Origin: Candidatus Woesearchaeota archaeon
Lineage (GTDB): Archaea; Nanobdellota; Nanobdellia; Woesearchaeales; JABIAG01
Length of the DNA: 64,000 nucleotides
Assembly: GCA_018653365.1 (NCBI GenBank)
Contig: JABIAG010000003.1
Location: 128,001 to 192,000 of the forward strand
Reading direction: 5' to 3'
The notes under the pieces were generated by a model. The model was not told the origin of the DNA. It searched no databases and worked only from the letters and a program-made list of their open reading frames with translations. Made by a program: the position numbers and the translations under genes. Each line of letters begins with the position of its first letter. Position 1 is the first letter of the stretch. Positions 16,619-54,165 of the stretch are shown piece after piece.

Positions 16619-18460
16619 ATGGAATTCGTGAGCATATTATTTTTCTTTGTAATGTTTTGGGGATTGGGATTTTCTATAACCTTCTTCATTAAGAAGAAAG
16701 ATGATTTCTTTGAAAAGTTCTTTATGAATCTTGCTTTTGGTATTGCAGTATTCGCTATTCTTGCTGCATTTTTCACTGTAGTTCACATTCCTCTAGCTTG
16801 GTATGTTTTTTTGATATTGTCTTTGATCATTCCTGTTTGGCACTTATTTACAAAAAAGCATTCTTTTAAGTTTAAACTTAAACGTTCTCATCTTTTTTTG
16901 ATTGTTGTTTTGATCTTGTTTATTTTTACTTTTTCTATGTATTTGAAAGGGAGTTTTGCATATCAATTGTATGAGGATGGTGATCCCTGGAAGCACGCAG
17001 GAATTGCTAAGTATATTGCAATACAAAAAACTGCATTAGAACCTTTTGAAGGAGGTAATGTTTTACAGTATGTTGATTCTTACCCTCCAGCATATGATTC
17101 TTTAATGTCTGTTTTGTATCAGGTATCAAATAATTTGGTTTGGACCATGAAATTTTTTAATGCACTTCTGATTTCATTAGGTATTTTCTTTTTTTACTTT
17201 TTTGTTAAGCGTTTCACTGGAAGGGCAGATCGTGCACTTTTTGCAACCTTTATTTTGGCAATGATTCCTGCTTACATGTCTCATTTTATTTGGGCGCATG
17301 CGATTATAACACTATTGCTATTTATTCTGTTTTATTCTATTGAAAGACTTGGAGAAAACAAGTGCTGGTTCTTTCCTACTTTTATTGCGTATGCAGGGGC
17401 AATCTTAATTCAGCCAACTCAAGCCTTCAAATTAACTTTGCTGGTAATAATCTATTTGGTTGTGAAATCTTTATTGATGAAAAAAGTTCAGTGGAATCAA
17501 CTGGGTGCAGTTATTTCAGGGGGAATATTAGCATTTGTTGTTTGGTGGGGTCCAATGATTGTTCGTTACGGCTCACTTAAAAAAATGATTTTGGGGGGCG
17601 GAACATCATTAAGTGTTGCTCGGGGTGTTGAGGGATTCACTCTTAAGTTTCATGGAACTGCAGATAGAATTTATACTTTTGTAGATTTTTTCTTTGCTAA
17701 CAGAGTTAACATGATCAACAATCCAATCGGAATTGGTGTTGTGGTAATGTTATTATTATTCTTTACCATCTTTGTTTTGATTTGGAAGTACAAACATTTG
17801 TTAAAAGAAAAAAATCATTGGGTTATCATTTCAGGAGCGATGTTATTGTTTACTTTCTTAGGTGTTCATGGAGAGAGACTTCCTGTTCAATTATGGGCAT
17901 TCAGGTTTTGGATGTTGTTTGCAGTTTTTCTTTCTATATTTGTTAGTGCAGGCTTTTTTGGTTTGGTTAAGTTATGTAAGAAAGTTAAATTTCCAGTTGT
18001 TTTATTAATTGTTTTAATTGTTTTGGGAGTTTGGTTTACTTCTGGAACCCAAAAGTGGAGTGTTAATACAGGTAGTTGGGAACATACTGCTGGAGAATTT
18101 GCACAGTATGGAAATTTGGATTCTTGGAAGTATGTCGCGGATCTTCCTCAGAATTCTAATGTTTTCTTTCCTTGTCGAAACCATAGGGACTTAGATGTTG
18201 CAATTATGGGTGTTGATCAGAATACTTGTTTGTGGTGTGCAGATGAGAAAGAATTCAAATTAAGGTGGGTGAATGAAACTCCTGAATCTATGGTACGTTT
18301 TGCTCAGTCTAAAGAGTATGATTATCTTTTTTTAGATGGTAATTGTTTTGTTCAATTAGATGAAAATGTTACTTTGTTTGGGAATTATCTTCAAGGAATA
18401 GGTGCAACTGGTGTTTCTTTAGTTCACAAAAGTCAGGGTGGATTCGTTTTTAAGATTTAA
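16619..18460 (+). CDS. Polytopic membrane protein, probable GT-C glycosyltransferase
   Basis: More than 12 TMs; first external loop EDGDPWKH...YPPAY; soluble C-terminal domain; glycan-locus context. Confidence 0.65.
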   Translation: MEFVSILFFFVMFWGLGFSITFFIKKKDDFFEKFFMNLAFGIAVFAILAAFFTVVHIPLAWYVFLILSLIIPVWHLFTKKHSFKFKLKRSHLFLIVVLILFIFTFSMYLKGSFAYQLYEDGDPWKHAGIAKYIAIQKTALEPFEGGNVLQYVDSYPPAYDSLMSVLYQVSNNLVWTMKFFNALLISLGIFFFYFFVKRFTGRADRALFATFILAMIPAYMSHFIWAHAIITLLLFILFYSIERLGENKCWFFPTFIAYAGAILIQPTQAFKLTLLVIIYLVVKSLLMKKVQWNQLGAVISGGILAFVVWWGPMIVRYGSLKKMILGGGTSLSVARGVEGFTLKFHGTADRIYTFVDFFFANRVNMINNPIGIGVVVMLLLFFTIFVLIWKYKHLLKEKNHWVIISGAMLLFTFLGVHGERLPVQLWAFRFWMLFAVFLSIFVSAGFFGLVKLCKKVKFPVVLLIVLIVLGVWFTSGTQKWSVNTGSWEHTAGEFAQYGNLDSWKYVADLPQNSNVFFPCRNHRDLDVAIMGVDQNTCLWCADEKEFKLRWVNETPESMVRFAQSKEYDYLFLDGNCFVQLDENVTLFGNYLQGIGATGVSLVHKSQGGFVFKI

Positions 18461-19853
18461 GTGACTCTAAAAGTTCTAAGAACCCATTTATGTTCATTTT
18501 TATTCCAGAAATTGAGTTTAGTCTTTTTATTGCTTTCCAAAGGTATCTTAATCTGAAATAGAATTCTTTATTCGCTTTTTTTAATAGTTCTTCTTGTTGT
18601 TTTGGATTTAATCCAGGCAGGGTCATATACCCTAATTGTAAGTGGTATCCCATCCACTTTTCTACTTTTTTCATATACCAATGTTTATTCTTCAATGCAC
18701 CTGTTTCAAGTGCCCAATCGTATAATTCTGTGTTGGGAAAGGGGGTGCAGATGGCAAAGTGCGCAAAATCGGGGTTTACTTTTTTTGCTAGTTCGATTGT
18801 TTTTCTTACGTTCTCAGGGTTGTCGCCAGGGTTACCAATCATAAAAAAGCCAATTGCTCTAATGCCTACCTTATCAATTATTTTAAATGCATCAATTACT
18901 TGTTGAGGGGTTATACCTTTTTTTATTCGGTTAAGTACTTCTTGGCTTCCAGATTCCACCCCTATTCCTAAAACATGACATCCACTTTTTTTCATTTTTC
19001 TTAAGATTGTTTCATCTAATGTATCAACACGTGAGTTACATCTCCAACTTATTTTTAACCCTCTTTTTTGTATGTCGTCACAGATTTCTTCAACCCACTT
19101 CTTGTCTAATACAAACGTACTATCTCTTATTGAGAAATCTTTTACTCCATATTTTTTATAATTATTTTCCATTTCATCAACAATGTTTTTTGGGCTTCTT
19201 ACTCTTGCTTTCCTTCCATGTGTTTTAAATGCATCACAGAACGAGCAACGATAAGGACATCCTCTAGAACAAATCATTGACATGGTTTTGCTATGTTGTG
19301 AGTAGGGCACTCGATACAAGTTTAAATCTATCAGGTCTAAGTCCGGAAAGGGTAACGAATCTAAGTCCTCAATTAATGTTCGCGGAGCATTTTTTATTAT
19401 TTCATCATTTTTTCTCCAGATCAGTCCTTTAACTTCTTCATCCTTTTTCTTTTGTAGCAATTCAAGGAAGGTATATTCTCCCTCACCATGAATTAAGTAG
19501 TCAACATCTTTTGAGAATTGAAATATTTCTTTTCCAACTGAGTTAACATGGCCTCCACCAAGGACAATTTTAGTGTTAGGGATGCGTTCTTTTACTTTTT
19601 TAGAAATTTCAAGAGCTTGTATGATCTGAGGGGTCATTACACTAATACCTAAAAATCTTGGATTCTCTTTTACTATTCTTTCAATTAGTTGTTCAGTTGT
19701 TACACCTTCACTTTCTGCATCGATTATCTTTACACTGAATCCCTCTTTTTTACAAATTGCTGCAATGTATAGTATGCCCAGAGGTGGAAGAGTGAATTTT
19801 GGTTTCTTACCCTCACTCATTGAGGGGTATACTAGAAGTATGTCTAATGCCAT
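18450..19853 (-). CDS. Cobalamin-binding radical SAM protein (class B methyltransferase-like)
   Basis: PPLGILYIAA, VLGGGH, SRGCPYRCSFC, GVESGS, FMIGNPG. Confidence 0.93.
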   Translation of the reverse strand: MALDILLVYPSMSEGKKPKFTLPPLGILYIAAICKKEGFSVKIIDAESEGVTTEQLIERIVKENPRFLGISVMTPQIIQALEISKKVKERIPNTKIVLGGGHVNSVGKEIFQFSKDVDYLIHGEGEYTFLELLQKKKDEEVKGLIWRKNDEIIKNAPRTLIEDLDSLPFPDLDLIDLNLYRVPYSQHSKTMSMICSRGCPYRCSFCDAFKTHGRKARVRSPKNIVDEMENNYKKYGVKDFSIRDSTFVLDKKWVEEICDDIQKRGLKISWRCNSRVDTLDETILRKMKKSGCHVLGIGVESGSQEVLNRIKKGITPQQVIDAFKIIDKVGIRAIGFFMIGNPGDNPENVRKTIELAKKVNPDFAHFAICTPFPNTELYDWALETGALKNKHWYMKKVEKWMGYHLQLGYMTLPGLNPKQQEELLKKANKEFYFRLRYLWKAIKRLNSISGIKMNINGFLELLESLKS

Positions 19854-21348: not shown

Positions 21349-23631
21349 ATGTTAAAAATGAAAAAGTCATTCAAAAAGCACATTCCTTTTTTACTTCTTA
21401 TTCTTGTTATTGCATTGGTTTACATGCATCCTTTTTTAAGTTCTAATGCTTCTTATCATCACGGTGATTGGCGGATTTCTCATCAGAATACCCTTGTAAT
21501 AATGGATAAAGCACTTGATGATGGGACTTTACCGTTATGGACTAATTTAGTTGATAGTGGGATGCCGTTCTATGCGATTCCGGATAAACCTTTTCTCTAT
21601 CCTCCTCTTCTTTTATTGCTCTGGTTCTTTGGTGCAGTATTTGCTATGAATATTTTGGTTGTTGCGCATATGGCTATTGCTGGTTTGTTCATGTATTTGT
21701 TGGCATTTCATTTATTTCAGAATAGGTATGTTGCTCTGGGTTCGGCACTCATTTTTATGTTGTCTTCTATTAATTTAATGCACGCCCCTTTTTGGAGATA
21801 TTCCACTGCTTGGATTCCTTTGTTAATGTACTTTGTTATTAGAGCGTTCGAGTCTAAAGATAAACGTATCTTGTTTTCAGTTTTAGCAGGAACAATTTTA
21901 GCATTACAAGCTCTGGCTGGAGGAATTTTCATCTTTTACTATACTCTATTGTTCCTTGTAATCTTGTTTTTAATTTTTAAATGGATGTTGGCGAAGAATA
22001 AAGTGGCATCTCTTTTTTCAGTTTTAATGATTTTCTTTATTCTTTTTGGAGTGTTTTTGGGTTTTTCTCTTGTTCGGCTCGCACCCTCAACAGAGTGGTC
22101 TAACTTAATTAACCGGGCGTCTGGATTGGATGTTGAGCAATCAAAAGGCACCACCCTATCTTCTTCTGATGTTTTTACCACGTTCATTTCAGGTAATGCA
22201 AAGGGGTACTATCGGATTGGTTTTTTGGGAACTATTTTTGTTTTATGTGCATTCTGCTTTTTTAGAAAAAAAGAATTTTTTAAGAATAATAAGAATAAGT
22301 TATTAATATTCTTTATTCTGGTTATGTTTATCAATTTAATCTTTGCTACCGGTCTTTTTTATGAGTTTTTTTGGAAGATTATTCCAGGATTAAACAAACA
22401 GCGGCATCTTATTCGTAGTCTGTTTGTTTACGTTTTCTGTGCTTCTATTGTTGCAGGGTATGGATTATTATATTTGTTTACCGTACTAAAAAAGCGCATT
22501 GGCGCCAAACCCTTCAAAATACTTTTTGTAATTCTTTTAGCATTGTTAGTTGTTGATATGTTGGCATTGTCAAATGTTTCAGAGAGATATCCTGATTTAG
22601 AAGATTACAATATAGTTATTGATAATAATCCTTTAGCACAATATTTGAGCACACAGGAAAAGCCTTTTAGAATTCATGTTTTTGAAGTGAGGGGTATTGA
22701 TTACACAAATATTGAAATTGCGACAATTCCGTTAAATGTGGAGGAGACTAGTCATGCCTTTGGGGGTTTTTGGTTTAATGATTACCTTCATGGTTTTATG
22801 AGTCTTGCTTATCAAGGAGATTATGCAAAAATTATGGGTGTTTTAAATGTCAAGTATATCTCCTCTTCAAAGGAAATTAATATTTCTGGTTTGGATTTGT
22901 ACAAAGTTCTTCCCGAGTATGATGGGGCAATTCCTGATTTTATTGATGGTCCGTATTTATATAATAATACTAAAGCAGTCTCACGCGCATTTTATCCTGA
23001 AAATAAAGTTTTGGTGGTTGGAGATTCTGAAAGTGCAAAGCAAATTGTTAGAGTTATTTTACTTCAAGATTCTTTTAATACGTCTAACACTGTTGTTGTG
23101 AGATCAAATAAAGATCGTGTTTCTGAGTTTAATTATGACTTTTTATCTGGGTTTGATGTAGTTGTTTTGGGAAAAGGATCTGTGGAATCAAATGTACCTT
23201 ACTCTCTTAAAAAATATGTTGAAGAGGGCGGAATCTTACTTCCAAATTTGATTGAGGGCGAAAACTCAATTAGTGCCGAGAATTTGGCAAAGGAATTCAG
23301 TTTATTTTCAGGATCAAACATAAATGTTGATGCTTCATTACATTATTCGCAAAACTCTCTTCTAATCAACAATCCTTCTCCTGGTTGGCTGGTTTTGAGT
23401 GAGAGATACGCATTGTTTCCGGGTTGGAGGGTTCGTGCAGATGGTACCGAACTTGATATTTTCCAGGCAGATGGCATTATTTCAGCAGTTAACGTACCAA
23501 GTAATGTTGCTGAATTAGAATTTGTTTATAGTCCTAAGTTTTTTGTTTCAACGTTTATTTTATTTATTCTAACAACGCTTTTTGTTGTTGTTTATCTTCT
23601 CTTATTCTGGAGAAAGTCATCAAAACAATAG
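21349..23631 (+). CDS. YfhO-like GT-C membrane glycosyltransferase
   Basis: PLWTNLVDSGMPF, many TMs, LNVKYI, C-terminal LVLSERY...PGWRVRADG plus TM. Confidence 0.8.
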   Translation: MLKMKKSFKKHIPFLLLILVIALVYMHPFLSSNASYHHGDWRISHQNTLVIMDKALDDGTLPLWTNLVDSGMPFYAIPDKPFLYPPLLLLLWFFGAVFAMNILVVAHMAIAGLFMYLLAFHLFQNRYVALGSALIFMLSSINLMHAPFWRYSTAWIPLLMYFVIRAFESKDKRILFSVLAGTILALQALAGGIFIFYYTLLFLVILFLIFKWMLAKNKVASLFSVLMIFFILFGVFLGFSLVRLAPSTEWSNLINRASGLDVEQSKGTTLSSSDVFTTFISGNAKGYYRIGFLGTIFVLCAFCFFRKKEFFKNNKNKLLIFFILVMFINLIFATGLFYEFFWKIIPGLNKQRHLIRSLFVYVFCASIVAGYGLLYLFTVLKKRIGAKPFKILFVILLALLVVDMLALSNVSERYPDLEDYNIVIDNNPLAQYLSTQEKPFRIHVFEVRGIDYTNIEIATIPLNVEETSHAFGGFWFNDYLHGFMSLAYQGDYAKIMGVLNVKYISSSKEINISGLDLYKVLPEYDGAIPDFIDGPYLYNNTKAVSRAFYPENKVLVVGDSESAKQIVRVILLQDSFNTSNTVVVRSNKDRVSEFNYDFLSGFDVVVLGKGSVESNVPYSLKKYVEEGGILLPNLIEGENSISAENLAKEFSLFSGSNINVDASLHYSQNSLLINNPSPGWLVLSERYALFPGWRVRADGTELDIFQADGIISAVNVPSNVAELEFVYSPKFFVSTFILFILTTLFVVVYLLLFWRKSSKQ

Positions 23632-27885: not shown

Positions 27886-28575
27886 TTATACAACTTCTTC
27901 TGCTTTTTTTAGGTCTTCTGGGAAGTCTATGTCGATGAACTTTTTGTCTCCTATATTAAATGAGGTGACCTCTTCACCATCTAAGATTATTTGATTTATT
28001 ATATTTATTAATGTGACATTTAAATTTGTTTTGAGCGCTTTTTCTATTTGTTTTATCATATTTTTCGCTCCGCTTTTTGAGAGCTTCATGATTCCTATAA
28101 ATTCACTGCTTTGATCGGGGGAATTTTCTTTACTTATTCCTGTTATTCTTCCGTTGTTTTCGATAACTTTTTCTGCTTCCTCTCTGAGTTCTTGTTTTTT
28201 TACTGCTAAGCAAGCATGTCCTGTACATGTTGGAAGTTCTTTTAGAATCGCTGAGTCAAATATTATGTCTGCATACATTACTATGCATTCCTCTTTTAGT
28301 TCTTCTTTTGCTGTTAAAAGTGTTGCAGCCATACCTGATACTTCAAAGAAAGGGTTGTAAACTGTTTTTATTTTCAATTTATTACATTTAGTTTCAAGTG
28401 CCTCTGATTTATATCCTGACACAACTATGATTTCATTTGTTCCTGCAGCTTTAAGCGCATCTATTTGGTGTTCGAGGATTGTTTTGTTTTTAACCATTAA
28501 CAAGCTTTGGGGGACATCTTTAACAAGAGGTAAAAGTCTTGGCGAATTCCCTGCTGCGATGATTATGGCCTTCAT
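27886..28575 (-). CDS. NTP transferase, LicC/PntC-like cytidylyltransferase family
   Basis: AIIIAAGNSPRLLP...PQSLL, VVSGYK, YNPFF, YADIIF, EFIGI, DIDFPEDL. Confidence 0.82.
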   Translation of the reverse strand: MKAIIIAAGNSPRLLPLVKDVPQSLLMVKNKTILEHQIDALKAAGTNEIIVVSGYKSEALETKCNKLKIKTVYNPFFEVSGMAATLLTAKEELKEECIVMYADIIFDSAILKELPTCTGHACLAVKKQELREEAEKVIENNGRITGISKENSPDQSSEFIGIMKLSKSGAKNMIKQIEKALKTNLNVTLINIINQIILDGEEVTSFNIGDKKFIDIDFPEDLKKAEEVV

Positions 28576-28614
28576 TTTTTAATTTTTATTTTTCTAAATA
28601 TTTAATCTTTTTGA

Positions 28615-29415
28615 TTATTCGATTGTTTTTATTCCAACAACGCGTTTTCTTATGGTTGCACTTATTCTGTCGATTAAGATTACCATTCCCACCATGATCA
28701 TTAGAATTGTTAAGACCTCTTGGTTTTTGAATAACCGCATGCTTGTTAAAAGTTCCATTCCAATTCCTCCCGCTCCAACGAGTCCAAGCACTGTGGCTGC
28801 TCTGAAGTTGTTTTCTAGGTAGTAAAGTATGTAGTTTATGAATGCAGGTTTTACTTGAGGAATTATTCCTTTTATAACCACTTGTATTTTGTTTGCTCCT
28901 GTTGAGAGTATGGCTTTTATTATTTTTGGGTCAACAGTTTCTATTGATTCTGAAAAGTATCTTCCTAGTGCCCCTGCAACATGGGCTGAGAGTGCAAGAA
29001 CTCCGGGAAATGGCCCTAAGCCGACCATGGATACAAATATTAGACCCCAAACAATCTCATTTATTCCTCTACAAATGTCAAAAAAGGTTCTTATGGTGTG
29101 ATAAACAAATTTGTTTGGCATTATATTGCGTGCAGCTAAAAATGAAAGGGGTAATGCGATTATGGCACCGATTGTTGTTCCTAAAATTGCCATTTGAAGT
29201 GTTTCCAGCCCTTTTAGTAAAAACGTGCCTATGTTGCTAAAGTCTGGGGGAAACATTCGTCTAATAAAATCCGCCATGTGAGGGATTCCCTGAGCAAAGC
29301 TTGTTGGGCTGGTTCCGGTTCCGCTTATTGCCCAATAATAGACTAGAACTATTAGCAATCCAATTATTAGTTTCTGATATTTTTTCTTTATTATTGTGTT
29401 GGGTATTTTTTTCAT
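28615..29415 (-). CDS. phnE: Phosphonate/phosphite ABC transporter permease
   Basis: RMFPPD, ETLQMAILGT, VGLGPFPGVLAL, ENNFRAATVLGLVGAGGIG. Confidence 0.94.
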   Translation of the reverse strand: MKKIPNTIIKKKYQKLIIGLLIVLVYYWAISGTGTSPTSFAQGIPHMADFIRRMFPPDFSNIGTFLLKGLETLQMAILGTTIGAIIALPLSFLAARNIMPNKFVYHTIRTFFDICRGINEIVWGLIFVSMVGLGPFPGVLALSAHVAGALGRYFSESIETVDPKIIKAILSTGANKIQVVIKGIIPQVKPAFINYILYYLENNFRAATVLGLVGAGGIGMELLTSMRLFKNQEVLTILMIMVGMVILIDRISATIRKRVVGIKTIE

Positions 29416-29418
29416 TTC

Positions 29419-30192
29419 TTAAAACCCGGTTTTTCCATATAAAAACCACTCTTTTGTTTTTCCGTAAATGTCTACTATGTCTTTTTCTGTTAGTTCTTCT
29501 GGAAGTCCATCAAAGACTATGTTTCCCTCTTTCATTCCAATAATTCTTGTTCCATACCTTTTTGCAAATTCAAGAAAGTGCAGGCTTGTTATGAGTGTTA
29601 TTCCTTTTTCTTTACATATTGTTGTGAGTAGGTCCATGACTTCTTTCATAAGTTTCGGGTCTAGGCTAGATACTGGTTCATCTGCCAGAATCACTGCAGG
29701 GTTTTGTGATAATGCTCTTGCTATTGCAACTCTTTGTTTTTGTCCTCCGCTCAGATTAGATACTCGTTCATTTTCGTATTCTCCTAACCCAACAACTTTT
29801 AGGTTTTCTTTTGCAATCGCAATGTCTTCTTTAGAAAACTTTCCAAATAATGTTTGTACCGTGCTTAAATATTTAAGTCTTCCATTTAGAACATTTTTTA
29901 GTACACTCTCGCTTTCAACAAGGTTGTACTCTTGGAAGATCATTCCTATGCTTCCTCTAATTTTTGTTGCATGGTGTATGTCACAATTTAGAATTTCTTT
30001 TTCTTCAATGTATATCTTTCCTGAGGTTGGGTCAATAAGTCTGTTAATACATTTTAGAAGGGTCGATTTTCCTGATCCGCTTGAACCTATAACTACTAAA
30101 CTCTCCCCTTTTTTTATTTGGAGGTTTATGTTGTTAACGGCTTCTTCTTCTCTACCTTCGTATTTATGGGTCAAGCCCTCTATTCGTATCAT
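29419..30192 (-). CDS. phnC: Phosphonate/phosphite ABC transporter ATPase
   Basis: GSSGSGKST, IGMIFQEYNLV, NVLNGRL, LSGGQKQRVAIARAL, ADEPVSSLDP. Confidence 0.94.
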   Translation of the reverse strand: MIRIEGLTHKYEGREEEAVNNINLQIKKGESLVVIGSSGSGKSTLLKCINRLIDPTSGKIYIEEKEILNCDIHHATKIRGSIGMIFQEYNLVESESVLKNVLNGRLKYLSTVQTLFGKFSKEDIAIAKENLKVVGLGEYENERVSNLSGGQKQRVAIARALSQNPAVILADEPVSSLDPKLMKEVMDLLTTICKEKGITLITSLHFLEFAKRYGTRIIGMKEGNIVFDGLPEELTEKDIVDIYGKTKEWFLYGKTGF

Positions 30193-30224
30193 TTTCTTTC
30201 AAAAAATAAAAAAATAAATTATAT

Positions 30225-31106
30225 TTACTTATTTGCTGCTTCTGCACTGCTAACATCCATGTCAAGTAATCTTGCAGTTTCTCTGATTACATCATAATCG
30301 CTGTCGGATACTTTTTGGTAGCTTGTAATTCCACCCCATCCGTCTACTTTATGGATTGTTTGTTCATCCATTTCTAGTAAGGCAGTTTGTATCCTGGTTT
30401 TTAGTTCTGCCGGTAAGCTCCCCCTTACTACTATTGGTGAACCGGGAATTGGTTCTGATTCGTGGATGATTATGTTTATTTCTGGGTCTATTTCTCCAGC
30501 TTCTATCATTCTTTGGTGAACATTATCTCCTGCTGCCCCCGCGTCTACTTTGCCATTTGCTATTGCGTATTGTACTGCGTTGTGTGTTCCTGCAAAGAAG
30601 CTGGTGCTGAAGTCTTTATCTGGGTCAATTCCGTTTTCGATTAGCATTTTTCTTGGTATTAAATTTCCTGATGTTGATGCAGGGTCTACAAAAGCGAAAC
30701 TTTTACCTTTAAGATCTTCTAATGTTTTAATTCCGCTTTCAGCGTTAACAATTATCACGGATTTATAGGTTGCACTTCCAGTACTTGCTTTTACTCCGTT
30801 AACTATTGCTTCTGCATCTGCAACATTGGCTGCGATTACATATGAGAATGGTCCAAACCATGCCATGTCAATATGTTCTGCTCTCATTGCTTCTATTGCG
30901 GCGGTGTAGTCTGAGGTTACTTGTATTTCAACGGGCATATCTAGTTTTTGTGAAAGGTATTCTTGTATTGGTTCATAATTTCTTAGCATTTCATCTGCAT
31001 CATCTGCAGGGATCAATCCCATTTTTAGAACGTTTTCTTCTTCTTTTTGACATCCCACTAATGCGATTAGTAAGATCAGACAAATAACTAATATTTCTTT
31101 TTTCAT
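30225..31106 (-). CDS. phnD: Phosphate/phosphite/phosphonate ABC transporter substrate-binding lipoprotein
   Basis: LVGC lipobox, DYTAAIEAM, YKSVIIV, DPASTSG, GTH, SEPIPGSP; SD GAGGTG. Confidence 0.93.
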   Translation of the reverse strand: MKKEILVICLILLIALVGCQKEEENVLKMGLIPADDADEMLRNYEPIQEYLSQKLDMPVEIQVTSDYTAAIEAMRAEHIDMAWFGPFSYVIAANVADAEAIVNGVKASTGSATYKSVIIVNAESGIKTLEDLKGKSFAFVDPASTSGNLIPRKMLIENGIDPDKDFSTSFFAGTHNAVQYAIANGKVDAGAAGDNVHQRMIEAGEIDPEINIIIHESEPIPGSPIVVRGSLPAELKTRIQTALLEMDEQTIHKVDGWGGITSYQKVSDSDYDVIRETARLLDMDVSSAEAANK

Positions 31107-31130
31107 TTTTCCCCACCTCAGTCTGTTGTT

Positions 31131-31532
31131 TTATTGTTTTTTTATTCTATTTTTTATAGCAGTACTTGATTGATTTTTATAGTATGGAAGCATGATGATT
31201 CGTCCATTTGGAAGGGCCTTTTTTAATTTCTTAAGATAAGGATTCCCTATGTGGCTTGTACTTTCTATTGTGATGTCTGGTTGTATGGCTTTTAAGTTCT
31301 CAATTGGAGAATATTCGTTTTGGGGAACTGCACAATCAACACATTTGAGTGCACTTATAAGCTTCACGCGTTCTCTAAATGACAATGCAGGTCTTGCTTT
31401 TTTCTCCATTACGGCTTCATCTGTTAGCACTCCAACAATTAACTTATCTCCAAGCGCTTTTGCATTCTCCAAGAACAGTAAATGTCCTTCGTGCAATATA
31501 TCTCCACATACGTAAGCATATACTATCTTCAT
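31131..31532 (-). CDS. HxGH-type cytidylyltransferase (TagD / PepM-associated CyTase-like)
   Basis: GDILHEGH, LIVGVLTDEA, ERVKLI, QSSTAIK. Confidence 0.88.
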   Translation of the reverse strand: MKIVYAYVCGDILHEGHLLFLENAKALGDKLIVGVLTDEAVMEKKARPALSFRERVKLISALKCVDCAVPQNEYSPIENLKAIQPDITIESTSHIGNPYLKKLKKALPNGRIIMLPYYKNQSSTAIKNRIKKQ

Positions 31533-31636: not shown

Positions 31637-32287
31637 CTGGATTATGCTACTAAACGCCAAGCAAGCAAAATATTAAGCACGCTTGTGGGTAATAATGATA
31701 CGAATTTTAAAACTCCTTCAAGATTTATAGAACATTCTAAGGAGGTTGCAGGTAATGTTGAAGCGGTTTATGATAGATTAGGATTGCCCGCTCAAGAGGG
31801 TTGGTTAGCTGGTCTATTTCACGATATTGGAAGATGTTTTGCTAAGGATCCCAAAGGACACACATTTCATGAAATTGGGAGTGGTAGAATTATTGAAAGA
31901 GATGGTGTTGAGTTAAAATTGTCTCCTGACCAAGCAATTTGTGATAGACTTGCACAATCCGTTAGATCTCATTTTTTAGTTGCAGAACAGTTTAGGATGC
32001 CAGAGTATGCAGAGTGGTTGCCTGGGTTTAGGGATGTTAATCCTGCACTTTTAACTCCTACTTCTTGGCAAGAGTTTGCAGTAGTTTATGGGGATATGAC
32101 TGCTAGTGGTAAAGACAGACCTTATACCTTCACAGAACGAATCAGCTCAATCAAAGATAAGGATGGGAAGGCTGGAAGTTCAAGGTTAGTTGTTGTTGAA
32201 CAAGCAGAAGGACGTTTATATGGTGTTGAACGTATGGTTTTAAAAGCTATGGAAACGAAAAACCTAACTGGGTTAAACACCCTTTAA
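31637..32287 (+). CDS. HD-domain metal-dependent phosphohydrolase
   Basis: H...GLFHDIGR...HE...SH...YGD; probable CTG start at 31637 (ORF track uses GTG 31685). Confidence 0.8.
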   Translation: MDYATKRQASKILSTLVGNNDTNFKTPSRFIEHSKEVAGNVEAVYDRLGLPAQEGWLAGLFHDIGRCFAKDPKGHTFHEIGSGRIIERDGVELKLSPDQAICDRLAQSVRSHFLVAEQFRMPEYAEWLPGFRDVNPALLTPTSWQEFAVVYGDMTASGKDRPYTFTERISSIKDKDGKAGSSRLVVVEQAEGRLYGVERMVLKAMETKNLTGLNTL

Positions 32288-33066
32288 AATTTTCTTAATG
32301 TTTTTTTTATTTCAGTTTCTAATCTTTTTAGAAATTCCATCTCTCTATCAACTCGCAGGTATTTTTTAACTTTTAAATCAGTGAATAAGCTTCTTATGGC
32401 ATAGTCTATGACTTCATAATTTACATCTGGTTTAGCTAGTTTTCCCATTCTTATGATTAACGCTTTTATGAGTGATTCTGGGTTAAGTTTTTTTCCAAAC
32501 TCTTTTTCATGTTGTAATCTTCGTTTAATTATTAATGGAAAATCTTCAGGTTTGAATTTATAATTCCAAATATCATTGGATAACATTTTTGTTTTAAACT
32601 TAAATGCACTATCTTTTTCTGTTATCTGTTTTTTTAAATTAAAATAGTCTATATCATCCCACAGTTCCCATTGTCCTGAGCAGGAAGATGCATTAGGTAC
32701 AAAGAATTGGATTGGATCAAAAAAGGTTTCTAAATAAATTTCAGTCATAACCGCCACCATAGCTTTTATTGGGTTTATTCCAATTGTTGATTCTTGACTT
32801 GATTTTAAGTTCCCAAATTCAGTGAAGATTCTGTCTTTTTCTTTTTTTATTAGTTTATACTCTTCTGAATTTTTTTTCGCATTAGTTTTATTTGTTGTTA
32901 GAATTTCTATTGCACTATTTACGACATTTATCTGTTTATGAAGCGTTTTTAGATTTTTAGATTCTGTGTTGGATGTGTGTACTAAAGCATAAATTGCATT
33001 GTTAGTGTTACATCCACAAGCTTCTAACATTTTTTCTACAATCGGAATGGTAAAAATGGCTTTCAT
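32284..33066 (-). CDS. Hypothetical protein
   Basis: 260-aa ORF with an upstream TATA element; no motif I can assign confidently. Confidence 0.65.
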   Translation of the reverse strand: MKAIFTIPIVEKMLEACGCNTNNAIYALVHTSNTESKNLKTLHKQINVVNSAIEILTTNKTNAKKNSEEYKLIKKEKDRIFTEFGNLKSSQESTIGINPIKAMVAVMTEIYLETFFDPIQFFVPNASSCSGQWELWDDIDYFNLKKQITEKDSAFKFKTKMLSNDIWNYKFKPEDFPLIIKRRLQHEKEFGKKLNPESLIKALIIRMGKLAKPDVNYEVIDYAIRSLFTDLKVKKYLRVDREMEFLKRLETEIKKTLRKF

Positions 33067-34643: not shown

Positions 34644-35141
34644 TTACTTTATTACTTTTAATTCAACCTCAATCATGTCATGGATCTCATTGAATAAGTA
34701 ATTAGCATATTTTCTTAAGAATTTTGGTAACATTTTTCCATATCTTGTTGGACGTAACTCGTTCTTTATTAGTTCAAACTTGTTTTTCTTTTCATAACTA
34801 TAACTATCATGTCCGCGTACTATTTGTTCTATTGCTCTTCTATTAAAGTGGTGTTTGTGGGTTATGTCATTAAAGCTTAGGATACTTTTACAGTAAGGTA
34901 CTCGAATTTGGATTAGGCATCCATTTTTCGCTATCCTGTGTAATTCTTCAATAACTTTTTCTGGGTCTTCTAGGTGTTCAAGTACATTATCAACAAGTAT
35001 TAACTCAAAAGAATCAGCTTTAAGTGGATAGGGAAATTTGTTAAAGTCAAATGATTTGTCAACGCCTTTGTGTTTTTGTAGGTCTACATTAACAAAACCT
35101 TCTTTTATTTTTATTCCGCAACCAAAATTTAATTTTTTCAT
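34644..35141 (-). CDS. Small class I SAM-dependent methyltransferase
   Basis: MKKLNFGCG, NVLEHL, RVPY, DITHKHHF; ATGA-coupled to the radical SAM gene. Confidence 0.85.
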   Translation of the reverse strand: MKKLNFGCGIKIKEGFVNVDLQKHKGVDKSFDFNKFPYPLKADSFELILVDNVLEHLEDPEKVIEELHRIAKNGCLIQIRVPYCKSILSFNDITHKHHFNRRAIEQIVRGHDSYSYEKKNKFELIKNELRPTRYGKMLPKFLRKYANYLFNEIHDMIEVELKVIK

Positions 35142-36679
35142 TTTATTATTTTCAAAACCCATCTGTTTATTTTATATTCAAGATCAAGGTATTTAAAAAA
35201 CTTCGTGTGCCAACGTAATTTTTCTACTATTGCTATAAAGAAGTCTCTTTTCCCTTTCTTCTTTAATATCTCAATTAAGGAAGGCACAACAAATTGTGAG
35301 TAGTACGCATTTACAAATAGTACAAAGTCTTTATTTTTTATCCAGTTATAGCTATATACGTCACCATACCCTACCACGTGGTCTATATCTTTTTCTTCTG
35401 AGATGCTCCATCCATCTAATTTATCCGGTTCTTTAAATCCCATTTTTTTGCACTCTTCATAAAGTGTTGAACCAGGATATGGTCTAAATACTTGTGGACC
35501 GTTGAATGTTGCATCGGGACAAAGTTTTTTTATTGTTTTAACCAGTTTTAGGGTGTTTTTCATATCTTCTTTAGTTTCTCCAGGTAAACCGATCATGAAT
35601 GAATAGAATGCACTTATGTTATGTTTGTTTAGTATTTTTGCTGAATTTTCAGTGTCTTCAACAGTTATGTCTTTTTTTAGTAGTTCTAAAATCCTGTTTG
35701 ATCCTGATTCTGCTCCAAGTTTTAGATAAACGCATCCACTCTTTTTGATTAGTTTTAGTAGATTTTCGTTAAGATGGGTTTCTTTGAATTCGCTTGCACG
35801 TACTGTGGTGCTCCATTTTATGTTTAATTTTCTTTCTATAATTCCTTCACATATTTCTTTAGCTCTTTTTTTATCTAAAAAAAAGTTTTCATCACGAAAT
35901 ATTATGAAGTCCATATCAAATTTGTTTTTGGCGTCTTCGAGTTCTTGCAAAACTCGTTTTGGGCTTTTCATTCTCCATTTTTGCCATCTTGGCAGTATGT
36001 TGTTTATGCAGAAGGTACAACTATGTGGGCATCCTCTCGAAGAGTTTATGGAAATGGTCTTTACTTTTTCTCTTTCAGGGAAAAATCTTTTATATGGCGC
36101 TTCTAAATATAATCTCATGTCTAATAATTCCCAGTTAGGAAGTGGACTATTCTCAATATCAACAAATGAGCAAGGGGGATTTATTATTACCTGTCCCTCT
36201 TTTTTATATGCTATTCCTCTTATGTCTGTTATGCTCTCTTTTTTTTGTAATCTTTTGGTAAGTTCGGTAAGTGTTTCTTCACCTTCATAGAGCACAACAT
36301 AATCAATTAGGGGGTGTTCACAGCATTGTTTTGGATAAAGCGTTGGATGAACCCCGCCCCACACTATTTTTATTTCAGGATTTATCTTTTTAATTAATTC
36401 TGTAAGTTTAAGTGAACTTTTTATGCAGTCTGTCATAACCGAAAACCCGACAACGATTGCGTCTTTAAGTTCTTCTTTTATCTTCTTTATGTAATCCTCT
36501 CCAATTTGATGGTAAGCAAACACATCAATAAATTTTACATTAATGTTTTCTTTAGAAAGCTCGGTTGCAATACTAAATAATCCCATGGGAATGTGAAATC
36601 TTTCAATTCCAACTTTTTTGAGTGGGTTAGGGGGAGCGTCTTCGCCTGCAATGGGGTTAATCAATACTACTTCTGCCAT
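35138..36679 (-). CDS. Cobalamin-binding radical SAM protein
   Basis: PMGLFSIA, VWGGVHPT, SRGCPHSCTFC, GAESGS, FMIGLPGET, PYPGS; start at ATG 36679. Confidence 0.93.
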   Translation of the reverse strand: MAEVVLINPIAGEDAPPNPLKKVGIERFHIPMGLFSIATELSKENINVKFIDVFAYHQIGEDYIKKIKEELKDAIVVGFSVMTDCIKSSLKLTELIKKINPEIKIVWGGVHPTLYPKQCCEHPLIDYVVLYEGEETLTELTKRLQKKESITDIRGIAYKKEGQVIINPPCSFVDIENSPLPNWELLDMRLYLEAPYKRFFPEREKVKTISINSSRGCPHSCTFCINNILPRWQKWRMKSPKRVLQELEDAKNKFDMDFIIFRDENFFLDKKRAKEICEGIIERKLNIKWSTTVRASEFKETHLNENLLKLIKKSGCVYLKLGAESGSNRILELLKKDITVEDTENSAKILNKHNISAFYSFMIGLPGETKEDMKNTLKLVKTIKKLCPDATFNGPQVFRPYPGSTLYEECKKMGFKEPDKLDGWSISEEKDIDHVVGYGDVYSYNWIKNKDFVLFVNAYYSQFVVPSLIEILKKKGKRDFFIAIVEKLRWHTKFFKYLDLEYKINRWVLKIIK

Positions 36680-36680
36680 T

Positions 36681-37778
36681 TTATTGATCACCAAATGTTG
36701 ATTTATAAAGATTTCTTAACTTGTCTGATACATTCTCAATATCAAACTTTTTCTGGTATTCTTTGTTAAATTTTTGCATCTCTTTCATTTTTTTAGGATT
36801 TTTAAAAAGATAAACTATCTTTTGGGCAATTTCTTTAGGATTCACTGAGTTAAGAAGCAAACCGTTAATTCGATCTTTGATTAGTTCATCATTTCCATGC
36901 CAGGGCGTACAGATCACGGTGGGTCCTGCGGTAATCGCTTCTAAGATAACATTGGAACATCCCTCTGTATGTGTGGTTGCCAATACAAATATTTCTGATC
37001 GTTTCATTTCTTTTATTGCTTGTTTATGTGCTAATCTTCCTGTAAATTTAACAACGCTCTCTAATTTCAGTTCTTTAACGATCTCTCTAACGTGCTTATC
37101 TTCTCCCTCTCTTCCACTTCCCACTATATTAAGCGTGGTATCTGGAAATTCTTTAAGAATAACTGGGAGCGCTTCAACTATTTTGTCAACATTTTTTGAT
37201 TTTCTTATAGTTCCAACATAGATTAGCGAGTGCTTTTGTGGTTTGTAAGGTTCTATGAAATCATTTAATACAATTCCATTTGGGATCACGTCTGTATTTG
37301 TAAACTTAAATTGTCTTGCAACATATTTTTTCATATAATTAGAAAGGGCTATGAATTTTGAGCACTTTTTAAGAATTATTTTTTTGATTATTTTTATGCA
37401 CTTGCCTCCAAGAAAGACATCTTCTCCTCTACCATATACTATGTAAGGAATGTTTAAGAATTTTTTAGCTAAGTATCCAATTCCACATAATTCAATTTCT
37501 AAAATGAAGTCAGGGTTTATTTTTTTTATTTTTTTTAACAGTTTTGAAAAATATATTAGAGTGCCAATTGTTGAGTCAGTTCTATTAACTCGAATTATTT
37601 TCAATCCAGTAAAGTCATTTTGGTTTTTGAGTTTCTCTTGAGTGAAGTGTGCTTTTTTCCTTGTCAATAGGTAAACTTCATCGCCTGCAGCAAGCATTTT
37701 ACCAACATATTTATTGATGTTGATTGTTATGCTATCAGCATTTCCTGAGAAGTGATTAGCATGTATCACAATTTTCAT
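36681..37778 (-). CDS. GT4 glycosyltransferase
   Basis: VIPNGI, YVGTIRKSKNV, EGCSNVILEA; start at ATG 37778. Confidence 0.9.
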   Translation of the reverse strand: MKIVIHANHFSGNADSITININKYVGKMLAAGDEVYLLTRKKAHFTQEKLKNQNDFTGLKIIRVNRTDSTIGTLIYFSKLLKKIKKINPDFILEIELCGIGYLAKKFLNIPYIVYGRGEDVFLGGKCIKIIKKIILKKCSKFIALSNYMKKYVARQFKFTNTDVIPNGIVLNDFIEPYKPQKHSLIYVGTIRKSKNVDKIVEALPVILKEFPDTTLNIVGSGREGEDKHVREIVKELKLESVVKFTGRLAHKQAIKEMKRSEIFVLATTHTEGCSNVILEAITAGPTVICTPWHGNDELIKDRINGLLLNSVNPKEIAQKIVYLFKNPKKMKEMQKFNKEYQKKFDIENVSDKLRNLYKSTFGDQ

Positions 37779-47279: not shown

Positions 47280-48004
47280 TTTTTCTCCATTATAACATAC
47301 CAACCATTAACCATTCTGTGTGGCAGTACATTAGCTATTTTTTGATCAACCTTTTCCAGCAGTCTTCTTAGAGGTGTATGGAAGAATAGTTGGTTTATTG
47401 GAAACGTTCCTAATATGAAGCAATGGTTTTTTATCTTTCTTATTTTTAGTCCTGCCTTATTTGCTAATTTTTTTAGTTGTTTTATTCTGAACTTTTGTAT
47501 GTGTGGGTTATCATAATTTGCTGTGAACATACCTTCGTTTGTTTTTGTTTTACTTTTTAGTTTTGTTGTTTTTCTTGTTCGAGTTATTAATCTTCCAATA
47601 ATTTCGCTTGATCCATATCCATTTGGGACTGTGATGATTGCCCACTTTTTTGTAACTCTTGAAATTTCTTTTAACATACTTTCAGGATTTTGTAAATGTT
47701 CTAGTACTTGAATGTTTAACACCACATCATATTTTTCTTTTTCTTCTTTTATGTCTTTTACTTCAAAACTTACATTGGGTAGTTTGTTTCTTTTTTTTGC
47801 AATTTCGATTGATGCTTTATCTACGTCTATGCCTCTTATTTTTTTAGCAACTAGTCCTGTTGGAATTGTAATTGATCCCGTTCCACAACCAACATCTAAA
47901 ATGCTGGCATTATTAATCTTTTTTATGAAATCAGTTACGAACTTTAACCTATTTATTCCTCCTACATCGTCTTGTACATTGGTATGTTTTAGAAAAGCGT
48001 TCAT
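47276..48004 (-). CDS. Class I SAM-dependent methyltransferase
   Basis: ILDVGCGTG, QVLEHL, ITVPN; start at ATG 48004 (ATGA overlap). Confidence 0.9.
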   Translation of the reverse strand: MNAFLKHTNVQDDVGGINRLKFVTDFIKKINNASILDVGCGTGSITIPTGLVAKKIRGIDVDKASIEIAKKRNKLPNVSFEVKDIKEEKEKYDVVLNIQVLEHLQNPESMLKEISRVTKKWAIITVPNGYGSSEIIGRLITRTRKTTKLKSKTKTNEGMFTANYDNPHIQKFRIKQLKKLANKAGLKIRKIKNHCFILGTFPINQLFFHTPLRRLLEKVDQKIANVLPHRMVNGWYVIMEKK

Positions 48005-49110
48005 TTTACCTCTTTTAATACTTCTTCTACCTTTATTTTTTTCATACACTTTCGTTTTAGTTTTTGATTGCAGTGATCGTAAAGTCCACAAGGGCTACAT
48101 TCTTCATGTTTGCTGATTACTGTGCAATTTTTGTATGCTTTCCATCTTTTAATGTTTGTGGGTCCCATCAATTCTATTGTTTTTGCTCCAACGATTGAAG
48201 CTAGATGCATTCCTCCGGAATCGCATCCAATTACATACTTTGCTTTTGTCATTAAAGCTCCAACTTCATTTAGATCTTTTCCAAGAAATTCAAGGGGTTT
48301 TGTTCGTGCATATTTCATTACACTTAATACATTTTTATCTCCTTTTGCTCCTGATAGAATTACTTGATATTTCAAGTTTAGTTTATCAACAAGTTCGATC
48401 CATTTTTCTAATTCCCATTCTTTTGTCGGATACCCTGCTGAAGGTAAAATAACAATGATTTCTTTTTCAACTTTTTCTAGTACTACTTCAAGTTTCTTAT
48501 ATTCTTCTTTTCCTATTTCAAGTTTATATTTTGCATCGGTTCCACCAATTGCTTTGGCTAGTTCCAAGTTGTTTTCTACTTCGTGTTTATCAAGAAACTT
48601 AATTGGGTGGGTTAATAGATACTCTCCCCCAGTTATTCCATATCCTGCTCGTAATGGTGCTTTGCTTTTATAAACTAGTAAGAGTATGTTTCTCAGGTCC
48701 CCCCTTAAATCTATTGCCAAATCATATTGTGATTTTTTTAATTTTTTAATTAATTTAAAGTATGTTTTGATGTCATTCCAATCAAGTTTGAATCCATATC
48801 TTATCCAAGGAACATCATATTCGATTAAATTGTCATAATCATAGTTATATTTCCATACTTCTTTGAATTTTGAATTGATTACTACATCAATTTGAGCTTT
48901 TGGGTATGCTTTTCTTATTGATTCTATTGCTGGAAAGCTGATTAATGTGTCTCCCAGATAGCCAAAGTCCACAATTAATATCTTTTTAATTTCACTAAGA
49001 GAAATGCTTCTCTTGTTTTCAAACAGTTTGCAAGCGGGGTGGATTGTTTTTAGTATTCCATCAACTATCGCAACGGCTTTTCCTCTTTTCTTATTTATTA
49101 TCTTATTCAT
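48001..49110 (-). CDS. GT9 (heptosyltransferase-like) glycosyltransferase
   Basis: KILIVDFGYLGDTLI, YDLAIDLRGD, KEW, GCDSGGMHLA, LMGPT, CSPC...CM. Confidence 0.9.
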   Translation of the reverse strand: MNKIINKKRGKAVAIVDGILKTIHPACKLFENKRSISLSEIKKILIVDFGYLGDTLISFPAIESIRKAYPKAQIDVVINSKFKEVWKYNYDYDNLIEYDVPWIRYGFKLDWNDIKTYFKLIKKLKKSQYDLAIDLRGDLRNILLLVYKSKAPLRAGYGITGGEYLLTHPIKFLDKHEVENNLELAKAIGGTDAKYKLEIGKEEYKKLEVVLEKVEKEIIVILPSAGYPTKEWELEKWIELVDKLNLKYQVILSGAKGDKNVLSVMKYARTKPLEFLGKDLNEVGALMTKAKYVIGCDSGGMHLASIVGAKTIELMGPTNIKRWKAYKNCTVISKHEECSPCGLYDHCNQKLKRKCMKKIKVEEVLKEVK

Positions 49111-50629: not shown

Positions 50630-51295
50630 TCATAGGTTAAATAACTTCCACTTTATTAAGTTTAGTACTATTTTTATGCCATCAACTGTTGTTGTGCCTT
50701 TGTATTTATCCCCATATATTGTTGTTATGGGAATTTCGCAGTAGTTGATATTATTTCTTCCTGCTCTTGCAATCATCTCTGATTCCATTGAATAATCATT
50801 AGCTTGCCATCGAATCTTTTTATATGTTTCTGATGTGAATGCTCTAAACCCTGATTGTGTGTCTCGTAAGTTTATTCTATAAAGGAGTTTGGTAATCTTG
50901 TCTATTGCAAAATTTCCTGCTCTGAATATGAAGGGCATATTTTTTGAGGGAATTCTATAGCCAAATACTAAGTCTTTTTCTTTTAGTTTTGTAATAAAAT
51001 TTGGAATCAGTTTTGGTTCATGTTGTCCGTCTGCATCCATTACAATGATGTGTTTTGCTCCTCGACTTATTGCATAATCACATCCGGTTTTTAATGCTGC
51101 ACCTTTACCTAAATTTGTTATGTGTCTTAATACTGTAACTTTTTCAGTTTTTGCTATTTTAGAAGTTGAGTCTTTGCTGCCATCATCAACGAGGATTATA
51201 TTTTTTACATAAGTCTTAACATCTTTTAGTACTTTTCCGATGTGTTTCTCTTCGTTGTGTGCTGGAATGACAACGAAGGTTTCATTCGGTTCCAT
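50630..51295 (-). CDS. GT2 dolichol-phosphate sugar synthase-like
   Basis: IPAHNEE, VDDGSKD, NLGKGAAL, DADGQH, DTQSGFRA. Confidence 0.92.
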   Translation of the reverse strand: MEPNETFVVIPAHNEEKHIGKVLKDVKTYVKNIILVDDGSKDSTSKIAKTEKVTVLRHITNLGKGAALKTGCDYAISRGAKHIIVMDADGQHEPKLIPNFITKLKEKDLVFGYRIPSKNMPFIFRAGNFAIDKITKLLYRINLRDTQSGFRAFTSETYKKIRWQANDYSMESEMIARAGRNNINYCEIPITTIYGDKYKGTTTVDGIKIVLNLIKWKLFNL

Positions 51296-54134: not shown

Positions 54135-54165
54135 TTTTTGTTTAGTGATATTCAAGAACTGGAAA

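Follow-up and report, generated by a model that had tools for sequence, protein, structure and literature searches.

A five-gene cassette of a tiny, symbiotic Candidatus Woesearchaeota archaeon (GCA_018653365.1, contig JABIAG010000003.1, positions 128,001 to 192,000 of the forward strand; this whole stretch of 64,000 nt is referred to as the window, and positions are counted within it) places an ATP-binding cassette (ABC) importer of the phosphonate type, PhnDCE, between two nucleotidyltransferases, and the linkage of phnD with such enzymes recurs in one clade of PhnD proteins in archaea and bacteria. We regard it as rather probable that a scavenged phosphonate or phospho-alcohol is imported through the cassette, activated with cytidine monophosphate (CMP), and attached to an acceptor.

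In the proposed route, the lipid-anchored PhnD would bind a small R-PO3 compound outside the cell, with R larger than H or methyl; candidate ligands are 2-aminoethylphosphonate (AEP), 2-hydroxyethylphosphonate, phosphoethanolamine, phosphocholine, and glycerol phosphate. PhnC and PhnE would bring the captured compound into the cell, the two flanking nucleotidyltransferases would join it with cytidine triphosphate (CTP) to give a CMP-phosphonate or a cytidine diphosphate (CDP)-alcohol, and membrane enzymes of the CDP-alcohol phosphotransferase family encoded in the surrounding gene island would hand the head group to an acceptor, most likely a lipid-linked or protein-linked glycan made by the same island. 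Neither a kinase nor phosphoenolpyruvate (PEP) mutase would be needed, as the imported compound would already carry phosphorus. A salvage route of this kind had been proposed in a preliminary description of the window, and it gains support from the conserved linkage, the failure to find pepM or phnJ, the loss of the phosphite cap in PhnD, and the presence of nearby transferases; what the ligand is, that CTP is the nucleotide, how the head group is transferred, and which acceptor receives it (in that description the AglB glycan) are the parts that we infer.

The cassette consists of five co-oriented open reading frames (ORFs) at 27886-31532, all on the minus strand. The first encodes an HxGH (HEGH) cytidylyltransferase-like enzyme of 133 amino acids (aa) in the position directly upstream of phnD, here called slot 1 (31131-31532; PF01467 CTP_transf_like, E 1.7e-13). 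It is followed by the genes for a PhnD-family substrate-binding lipoprotein with the lipobox LVGC (30225-31106; TIGR03431, 273.8 bits vs a cut-off of 261.1; PF12974 family), the PhnC ABC ATPase (29419-30192; TIGR02315, 317.9 bits vs 266), the PhnE permease (28615-29415; TIGR01097, 300.8 bits vs 217), and, downstream of phnE, an enzyme of 229 aa with the NTP_transferase fold, of the LicC/PntC/IPCT type and assigned to orthogroup NTPt-A (27886-28575; PF12804/PF00483). These profile scores bear out the gene content and coordinates first reported, and the two flanking transferases are, as had been stated, of unrelated families (PF01467 vs PF12804/PF00483). Because the intergenic gaps are only 24, 32, 3, and 39 nt in gene order, the five genes fit a single operon. 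The genome (1.09 Mb in three contigs, 94.9% complete) has its nearest relatives among Woesearchaeota and other metagenome-assembled genomes of DPANN archaea.

Conservation and spread of the cassette

The clade to which the cassette PhnD belongs comprises 634 proteins at E<=1e-60, every one of them named just "phosphonate ABC transporter substrate-binding protein". Identities of 66-82% are found in Woesearchaeota/Nanobdellati, Aenigmatarchaeota, bacteria of the candidate phyla radiation (CPR; Nealsonbacteria and other Patescibacteria), and Dehalococcoidia; the next-best PhnDs outside the clade reach at most 44%. The ORFs of all fetched loci (given below as L followed by a number) were labelled with hidden Markov models (HMMs) made from the cassette genes. 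A nucleotidyltransferase stands beside phnD in 34/34 clade loci vs 0/118 loci of non-clade PhnDs (at most 44% identity), a comparison in which the HMMs derive from clade enzymes, so that very distant nucleotidyltransferases may escape in the control set. Chance adjacency of phnD and nucleotidyltransferases, considered as an explanation, is ruled out by this contrast.

The gene directly upstream of phnD is a co-oriented nucleotidyltransferase in 29 of 30 foreign loci (duplicates removed), and orthologs of the 133-aa HxGH enzyme hold that position in 16 foreign loci. An NTPt-A ortholog of the 229-aa enzyme is encoded at most two genes past phnE in 14/20 loci. The general layout is an HxGH enzyme of ~180 aa, an HxGH enzyme of ~140 aa or an NTP transferase B of ~260 aa, phnD, optionally a methyltransferase, phnC, phnE, and an NTP transferase A of ~230 aa; the layout of G098, another genome of the order, is identical to that of the window. 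The preliminary description had allowed for an arrangement conserved nowhere; the synteny survey found it kept in archaea, CPR bacteria, and Dehalococcoidia. The downstream NTPt-A and upstream NTPt-B enzymes form two separate orthogroups, and since their trees agree in branching order, the cassette has moved as a unit, horizontally, between lineages. Viral contigs, when scanned, yielded no member of the PhnD clade, the sole match being a fragment of 35% identity.

Two further observations concern individual loci. A class I S-adenosylmethionine (SAM) methyltransferase of 243 aa is encoded between phnD and phnC in several cassettes (L002:6945-7676, L008:6941-7672, and L099; also L094) and may methylate the imported compound. 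A role as phosphoethanolamine N-methyltransferase was considered, as it would speak for an amine as the ligand. Enzymes of this type do appear among the solved structures related to it (E 4e-9 to 2e-8), but uncharacterised proteins match it better and the position of PfPMT Asp128 is not kept, which leaves a weak lead. At L166 (G030:C28, 2476-4830), in a different genome of the order, a distant PhnD-like gene (29% identity) stands as an orphan with no phnC or phnE beside it, and two small HxGH-like ORFs lie ~0.7 kb from it on the opposite strand.

Binding pocket of PhnD and the flanking enzymes

PhnD begins with a signal peptide ending in the lipobox LVGC, as would be expected for a surface-anchored archaeal binding protein. 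Its closest solved relatives are the PtxB phosphite binders of PtxABC systems (5lv1, 5o2j, and 5jvb; E 1.8e-52, for 5lv1, to 7.8e-49; Bisson et al. 2017, PMC5700983); E. coli PhnD (an AEP binder, 3p7i) and GpxB (a glycerol-1/3-phosphate binder, PMC12718374) are more distant. All six residues that contact the PO3 head are kept, in common with these two members of the family (Y67, Y114, S144, T145, S146, and H175; in E. coli Y47, Y93, S127, T128, S129, and H157), as are the oxygen-binding Y55, S130-T-S, and H160 of Te_PtxB. The cassette protein departs from PtxB at the cap. In PtxB, Tyr208 and Asp22 provide a P-H...pi contact and sterically bar bulkier R groups (Bisson et al. 2017, PMC5700983); in the cassette PhnD they are replaced by Ser223 (PIPGSPI) and Ala34 (LIPADD), both invariant in 15 clade members. 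At the cap positions the clade carries A34, S223, and, at residue 195 (N195 in the window), Asn or Thr; Asp194, which adjoins the E177 column, is invariant. In E. coli PhnD, T14, E177, and D205 hold the amine of AEP, and in GpxB an Arg and a Thr at the E177 and D205 positions hold hydroxyls (PMC12718374); these two proteins show that the tail pocket of the family can be adapted to amine or hydroxyl groups, and A34/N195/S223 differ from the tail residues of both.

Because the PO3-head residues are kept while both phosphite caps are lost, the ligand is probably an R-PO3 compound with a polar tail larger than methyl, and a pocket without the phosphite cap fits the imported phosphonate or alcohol phosphate first suggested for this locus. 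The cassette PhnD represents a new subgroup of the family, with a PtxB-like backbone, an A/N/S cap, and linkage to nucleotidyltransferases instead of PtxD, of which no linked gene was seen, or of the C-P (carbon-phosphorus) lyase (phnGHIJKLM) to which E. coli PhnD is linked.

The label "LicC/PntC-like" given earlier to the downstream enzyme is backed by its predicted fold. In a Foldseek search with the AlphaFold2 model of the 229-aa enzyme (predicted local distance difference test, pLDDT, 92.3), ranks 1-9 are LicC and PntC at template modelling (TM) scores of 0.85-0.91, with inositol-1-phosphate cytidylyltransferase (IPCT) just below. The best match by TM-score is PntC 6pd2 (TMq 0.91, root-mean-square deviation 1.9 A; ~22% sequence identity); LicC 1jyk scores 0.85 and IPCT 4jd0 0.87. 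The model is thus closest in fold to three solved CTP:phospho(no)-alcohol cytidylyltransferases, LicC, PntC, and IPCT, the first two of which activate phosphocholine and AEP, respectively, for surface tailoring (PMC6697681). On the strength of this model we consider the family assignment sound at fold level; the fold does not settle the substrate.

The upstream 133-aa enzyme matches PF01467 at 51.4 bits (cut-off 21) and has the HEGH motif; its C-terminal RTEGISTT-like motif is degenerate (YKNQSST). It had been likened to HxGH enzymes of the Fom1 N-terminal type and TagD, and the Fom1 CyTase domain (5x3d) is indeed among its closest relatives; that domain is, however, just one of several about equally close, together with HldC-like 5x9q, human ethanolamine-phosphate cytidylyltransferase 3elb, and TagD 1coz. 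Scores remain far under the cut-offs of all equivalog models, among them TagD (56.6 vs 165.4 bits) and HldC/RfaE-II (84.9 vs 181.5 bits). Locus L004 encodes a separate, full HldE-like kinase/adenylyltransferase fusion alongside the phnD-adjacent HxGH enzyme, which argues that the latter is not simply a heptose enzyme. Directly upstream of phnD in L003 (4093-5982) is a 629-aa fusion of a sulfatase/phosphodiesterase-superfamily (phosphotransferase) domain with an NTP_transferase domain, a composition that suggests activation and transfer on one chain, the former domain being a further kind of phospho-group transferase.

Genomic context: missing pathways and the glycosylation island

A Pfam pass over the scanned window ORFs of at least 110 aa found no phosphonate-making or -degrading gene, C-P lyase included, in agreement with the preliminary description. 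In searches of the 95%-complete assembly, PEP mutase (PF13714) did not turn up either, and it is under cut-off or absent in five other carriers (over cut-off in 0/6); PhnJ, LicD (PF04991), and choline/ethanolamine kinase (PF01633) were likewise not found in that assembly, which is not proof of absence. The search for ptxD met a single 2-hydroxyacid dehydrogenase, which lies unlinked on another contig and looks best like phosphoglycerate dehydrogenase (PGDH) or glyoxylate reductase (no PtxD-specific model was used).

The cassette is embedded in a 42-kb N-glycosylation island (12.9-55 kb of the window), marked by the AglB/STT3 oligosaccharyltransferase (51282-54155, minus strand; PF02516, E 6.4e-38, and PF21436). 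The island further contains GT1, GT2, and GT9 glycosyltransferases, a flippase, several SAM methyltransferases, two B12-radical SAM enzymes, and an operon for the supply of 3'-phosphoadenosine-5'-phosphosulfate (PAPS).

Three genes of the CDP-alcohol phosphotransferase family (PF01066) provide candidates for the transfer step, as had been proposed. A divergent membrane protein (38660-39418, minus strand; E 6e-4, under cut-off) is a candidate head-group transferase; the others are encoded at 43563-44294 (plus strand; 44.3 bits, over cut-off; GSFFDDSFH) and 44291-45067 (minus strand; 42 bits; GRITDAFVD). The family motif D1xxD2GxxAR...GxxxD3xxxD4 is complete, hence canonical, in the protein at 44291-45067; D4 is His in that at 43563-44294, and that at 38660-39418 departs from the motif at G, D3, and D4, with His again for D4. 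These are the genome's sole PF01066 genes, and since all of them (38660-45067) lie inside the island, an ordinary role in phospholipid head-group synthesis is improbable for them. Elsewhere, a CDP-alcohol phosphotransferase is encoded within 6 kb of the cassette in 10/31 foreign loci, in some directly adjacent, and orthologs of 38660-39418 stand directly beside it in L009 and L012. The subgroup with His for the fourth, catalytic Asp recurs (L009:4641-5402, L009:8655-9317, L012:4361-5098, and L085:1632-2366), and other cassette-linked copies have Gly or Asn at this position. The His variants may be a specialised type of transferase or may be inactive.

Other genes of the island are noted here for completeness. 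A GT9 heptosyltransferase-family gene (48001-49110, minus strand), within an archaeal AglB island, hints at heptose in the island glycan. The two B12-binding radical SAM enzymes (18450-19853 and 35138-36694, both minus strand) have homologs in four foreign cassette loci; they were considered as phosphonate methylases of the Fom3/PhpK type and set aside, as they match many B12-radical SAM families equally, weakly, and far under cut-offs, an unspecific signal. Three ORFs have no Pfam match (16619-18460, plus strand, 613 aa; 21349-23631, plus strand, 760 aa; 32284-33066, minus strand, 260 aa) and are possible unrecognised membrane polymerases or transferases.

Alternative explanations and known systems

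Several points weigh against import and activation for surface display. The proposal is built on sequence, fold, and gene context, and the sequence does not reveal the ligand, be its tail an amine, a hydroxyl, or another group. Micromolar affinity for phosphate is frequent among PhnD-family proteins (PMC6469041, PMC10284923); phosphate passes through PhnCDE in E. coli (PMC6469041) and probably in picocyanobacteria, whose PhnD1 has been argued to be a phosphate transporter (PMC10284923). Sugar-1-phosphate nucleotidyltransferases score barely worse than the LicC group by fold against the model of the 229-aa enzyme, and by sequence its alignment with LicC covers residues 1-144, the nucleotide-binding half only (the substrate pocket being marked by D105/D192 and the aromatic box in LicC, and by E104/E196 in PntC). 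The top-scoring models for the 133-aa enzyme are those of heptose-1-phosphate adenylyltransferase (NCBIfam rfaE domain II), in an island that has a GT9 heptosyltransferase. The fourth Asp of the motif is missing from two of the island's CDP-alcohol transferases, and in the window none of the three adjoins the cassette. Searches of the 95%-complete genome, finally, gave neither PstS nor Pit (PHO4).

The phosphate uptake by PhnCDE, the place of PtxB as closest solved relative, the best NCBIfam matches of the flanking enzymes (rfaE domain II for the HxGH enzyme and archaeal GlmU/AglF for the downstream one, all under cut-offs), the GT9 gene, and the missing PstS and Pit would suit an alternative that we judge unlikely, in which PhnDCE imports phosphate or phosphite for general phosphorus nutrition, the nucleotidyltransferases use endogenous glycan substrates (heptose-1-phosphate, sugar-1-phosphate, or glycerol phosphate), and the linkage reflects co-regulation or hitch-hiking. 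The binding pocket, however, has lost the phosphite cap (Tyr to Ser, Asp to Ala), no PtxD-like gene is linked, and in L004 the HldE-like fusion is encoded as a separate protein in addition to the phnD-adjacent HxGH enzyme. A general pump would also give no reason for a linkage to nucleotidyltransferases that holds in 34/34 loci of two domains vs 0/118.

Genome counts speak against it as well. Among 121 genomes of the order, PstS was found in just 7, Pit (PHO4) in 9, any PhnD-like gene in 5, and a clade PhnD, and with it the cassette, in 2; a 100%-complete genome of the same family has no clade PhnD or cassette. From these counts and this genome, members of the order normally do without Pst and Pit, and the cassette is an accessory of sporadic occurrence, not the ordinary phosphate pump of the lineage. 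The argument that PhnDCE replaces a lost Pst or Pit was dropped, since ~100 of the 121 sampled genomes have none of the three systems. Of two Dehalococcoidia carriers, one has four PstS genes besides the cassette, and the other has a PstS match broken by stop codons.

A second alternative, which we hold improbable, keeps import and activation and exchanges the acceptor for a membrane lipid: a head-group pathway of the Kennedy type would convert scavenged lipids to phosphonolipids or phospholipids. CDP-alcohol phosphotransferases classically act on lipid head groups, the island holds the only ones of the genome, and these score best, under cut-off, against archaetidylinositol-phosphate (AIP) and phosphatidylinositol-phosphate (PIP) synthases; moreover, the CPR bacteria and Dehalococcoidia that carry the cassette have glycans unlike archaeal ones. 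The nearest functional precedent is eukaryotic, a diatom being reported to place imported AEP in lipids via the Kennedy pathway (PMC9765203). Against a lipid acceptor, the cassette of the window and those of most relatives lie in the company of glycosyltransferases, a flippase, methyltransferases, and AglB, and the motif is non-canonical in two of the three transferases; nor did a synthase of CDP-archaeol or CDP-diacylglycerol turn up, in analyses of which none was aimed at one.

Some HD-domain proteins (PhnZ, TmpB) cleave C-P bonds. A divergently transcribed HD-domain protein (31685-32287, plus strand; PF01966, E 5.5e-6) is a recurrent neighbour, encoded beside the cassette in the window and in 4/31 foreign loci; the homologs (L004:8586-9335, between phnE and the downstream nucleotidyltransferase; L007:4771-5466; L087:4862-5491; L089:3343-4074) belong to no curated family. 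That a neighbouring enzyme of this kind frees phosphorus for nutrition from an imported and nucleotidylated phosphonate, as a new catabolic route, is very improbable, as most loci have no HD protein, the protein has no detectable solved relative and keeps only H, HD, H, and an acidic residue without a clear six-ligand di-iron pattern (for which reason a PhnZ-like C-P oxygenase was not adopted), a PhnY-type oxygenase as its partner was not seen, and nucleotidylation would cost CTP for no obvious gain.

Import, activation, and attachment to an island glycan, the reading preferred here, resembles the Lic and Pnt tailoring pathways in its logic, and the cassette is a member of neither, being without LicA, LicD, and PEP mutase and having an ABC importer as its front end. 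With the Lic pathway (LicB permease, LicA kinase, LicC, and LicD; Streptococcus pneumoniae and Haemophilus) it would share uptake of a precursor, activation with CTP, and attachment to a surface glycan, and the fold of LicC recurs in the downstream enzyme. It differs in that the importer is a binding-protein-dependent PhnDCE system instead of the LicB permease; that the import would already carry phosphorus, no LicA/choline kinase having been found; that LicD was not found and CDP-alcohol phosphotransferase-family proteins are the candidate transferases; and that a second, unrelated nucleotidyltransferase of the HxGH type is present. With the Pnt pathway (PntC, an AEP cytidylyltransferase; Rice et al. 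2019, PMC6697681; 6pd1/6pd2) the cassette would share a LicC-like nucleotidyltransferase with a phosphonate-type function in a cell-surface context. Pnt clusters are defined by PEP mutase, that is, by a phosphonate made in the cell, whereas the cassette has an importer in its place and PEP mutase over cut-off in none of six carriers; transporters and salvage do not come up in the PntC paper (PMC6697681). The IPCT/DIPPS system of hyperthermophiles likewise pairs a cytidylyltransferase of the NTP_transferase fold with a CDP-alcohol phosphotransferase, there a CDP-inositol phosphotransferase, and the transferases of the window match the DIPPS and AIP synthase models weakly, with all scores far under the family cut-offs; here, the two activities are unfused, the genes sit in the glycan island of a mesophile, and an importer stands at the front of the pathway. 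Literature searches found no description of such a cassette in prokaryotes.

PhnCDE is usually read as a system for nutrient scavenging that feeds C-P lyase, phosphonatase, or PtxD. That a large, conserved PhnD subgroup is wired only to activating enzymes suggests uptake for display rather than catabolism, and thereby a third role for this importer. More tentatively, and as something we hold possible rather than probable, a mobile cassette shared across domains would let cells unable to form C-P bonds (DPANN archaea, CPR bacteria, and Dehalococcoidia) scavenge phosphonates from the environment or from hosts and display them on glycans or lipids by way of an unrecognised, nucleotidyltransferase-linked PhnD subgroup. 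If this is true, censuses based on PEP mutase (pepM) would undercount phosphonate-bearing microbes, and part of the phosphonate turnover in marine waters and groundwater would be re-use and not mineralisation. Ultra-small symbionts with minimal metabolism would obtain cheap charged or zwitterionic surface decorations from ready-made parts, decorations of a kind that bears on host attachment and on phage/host recognition. For the PhnD family, a new ligand specificity could be established from just three soluble proteins, the binding protein and the two small enzymes.

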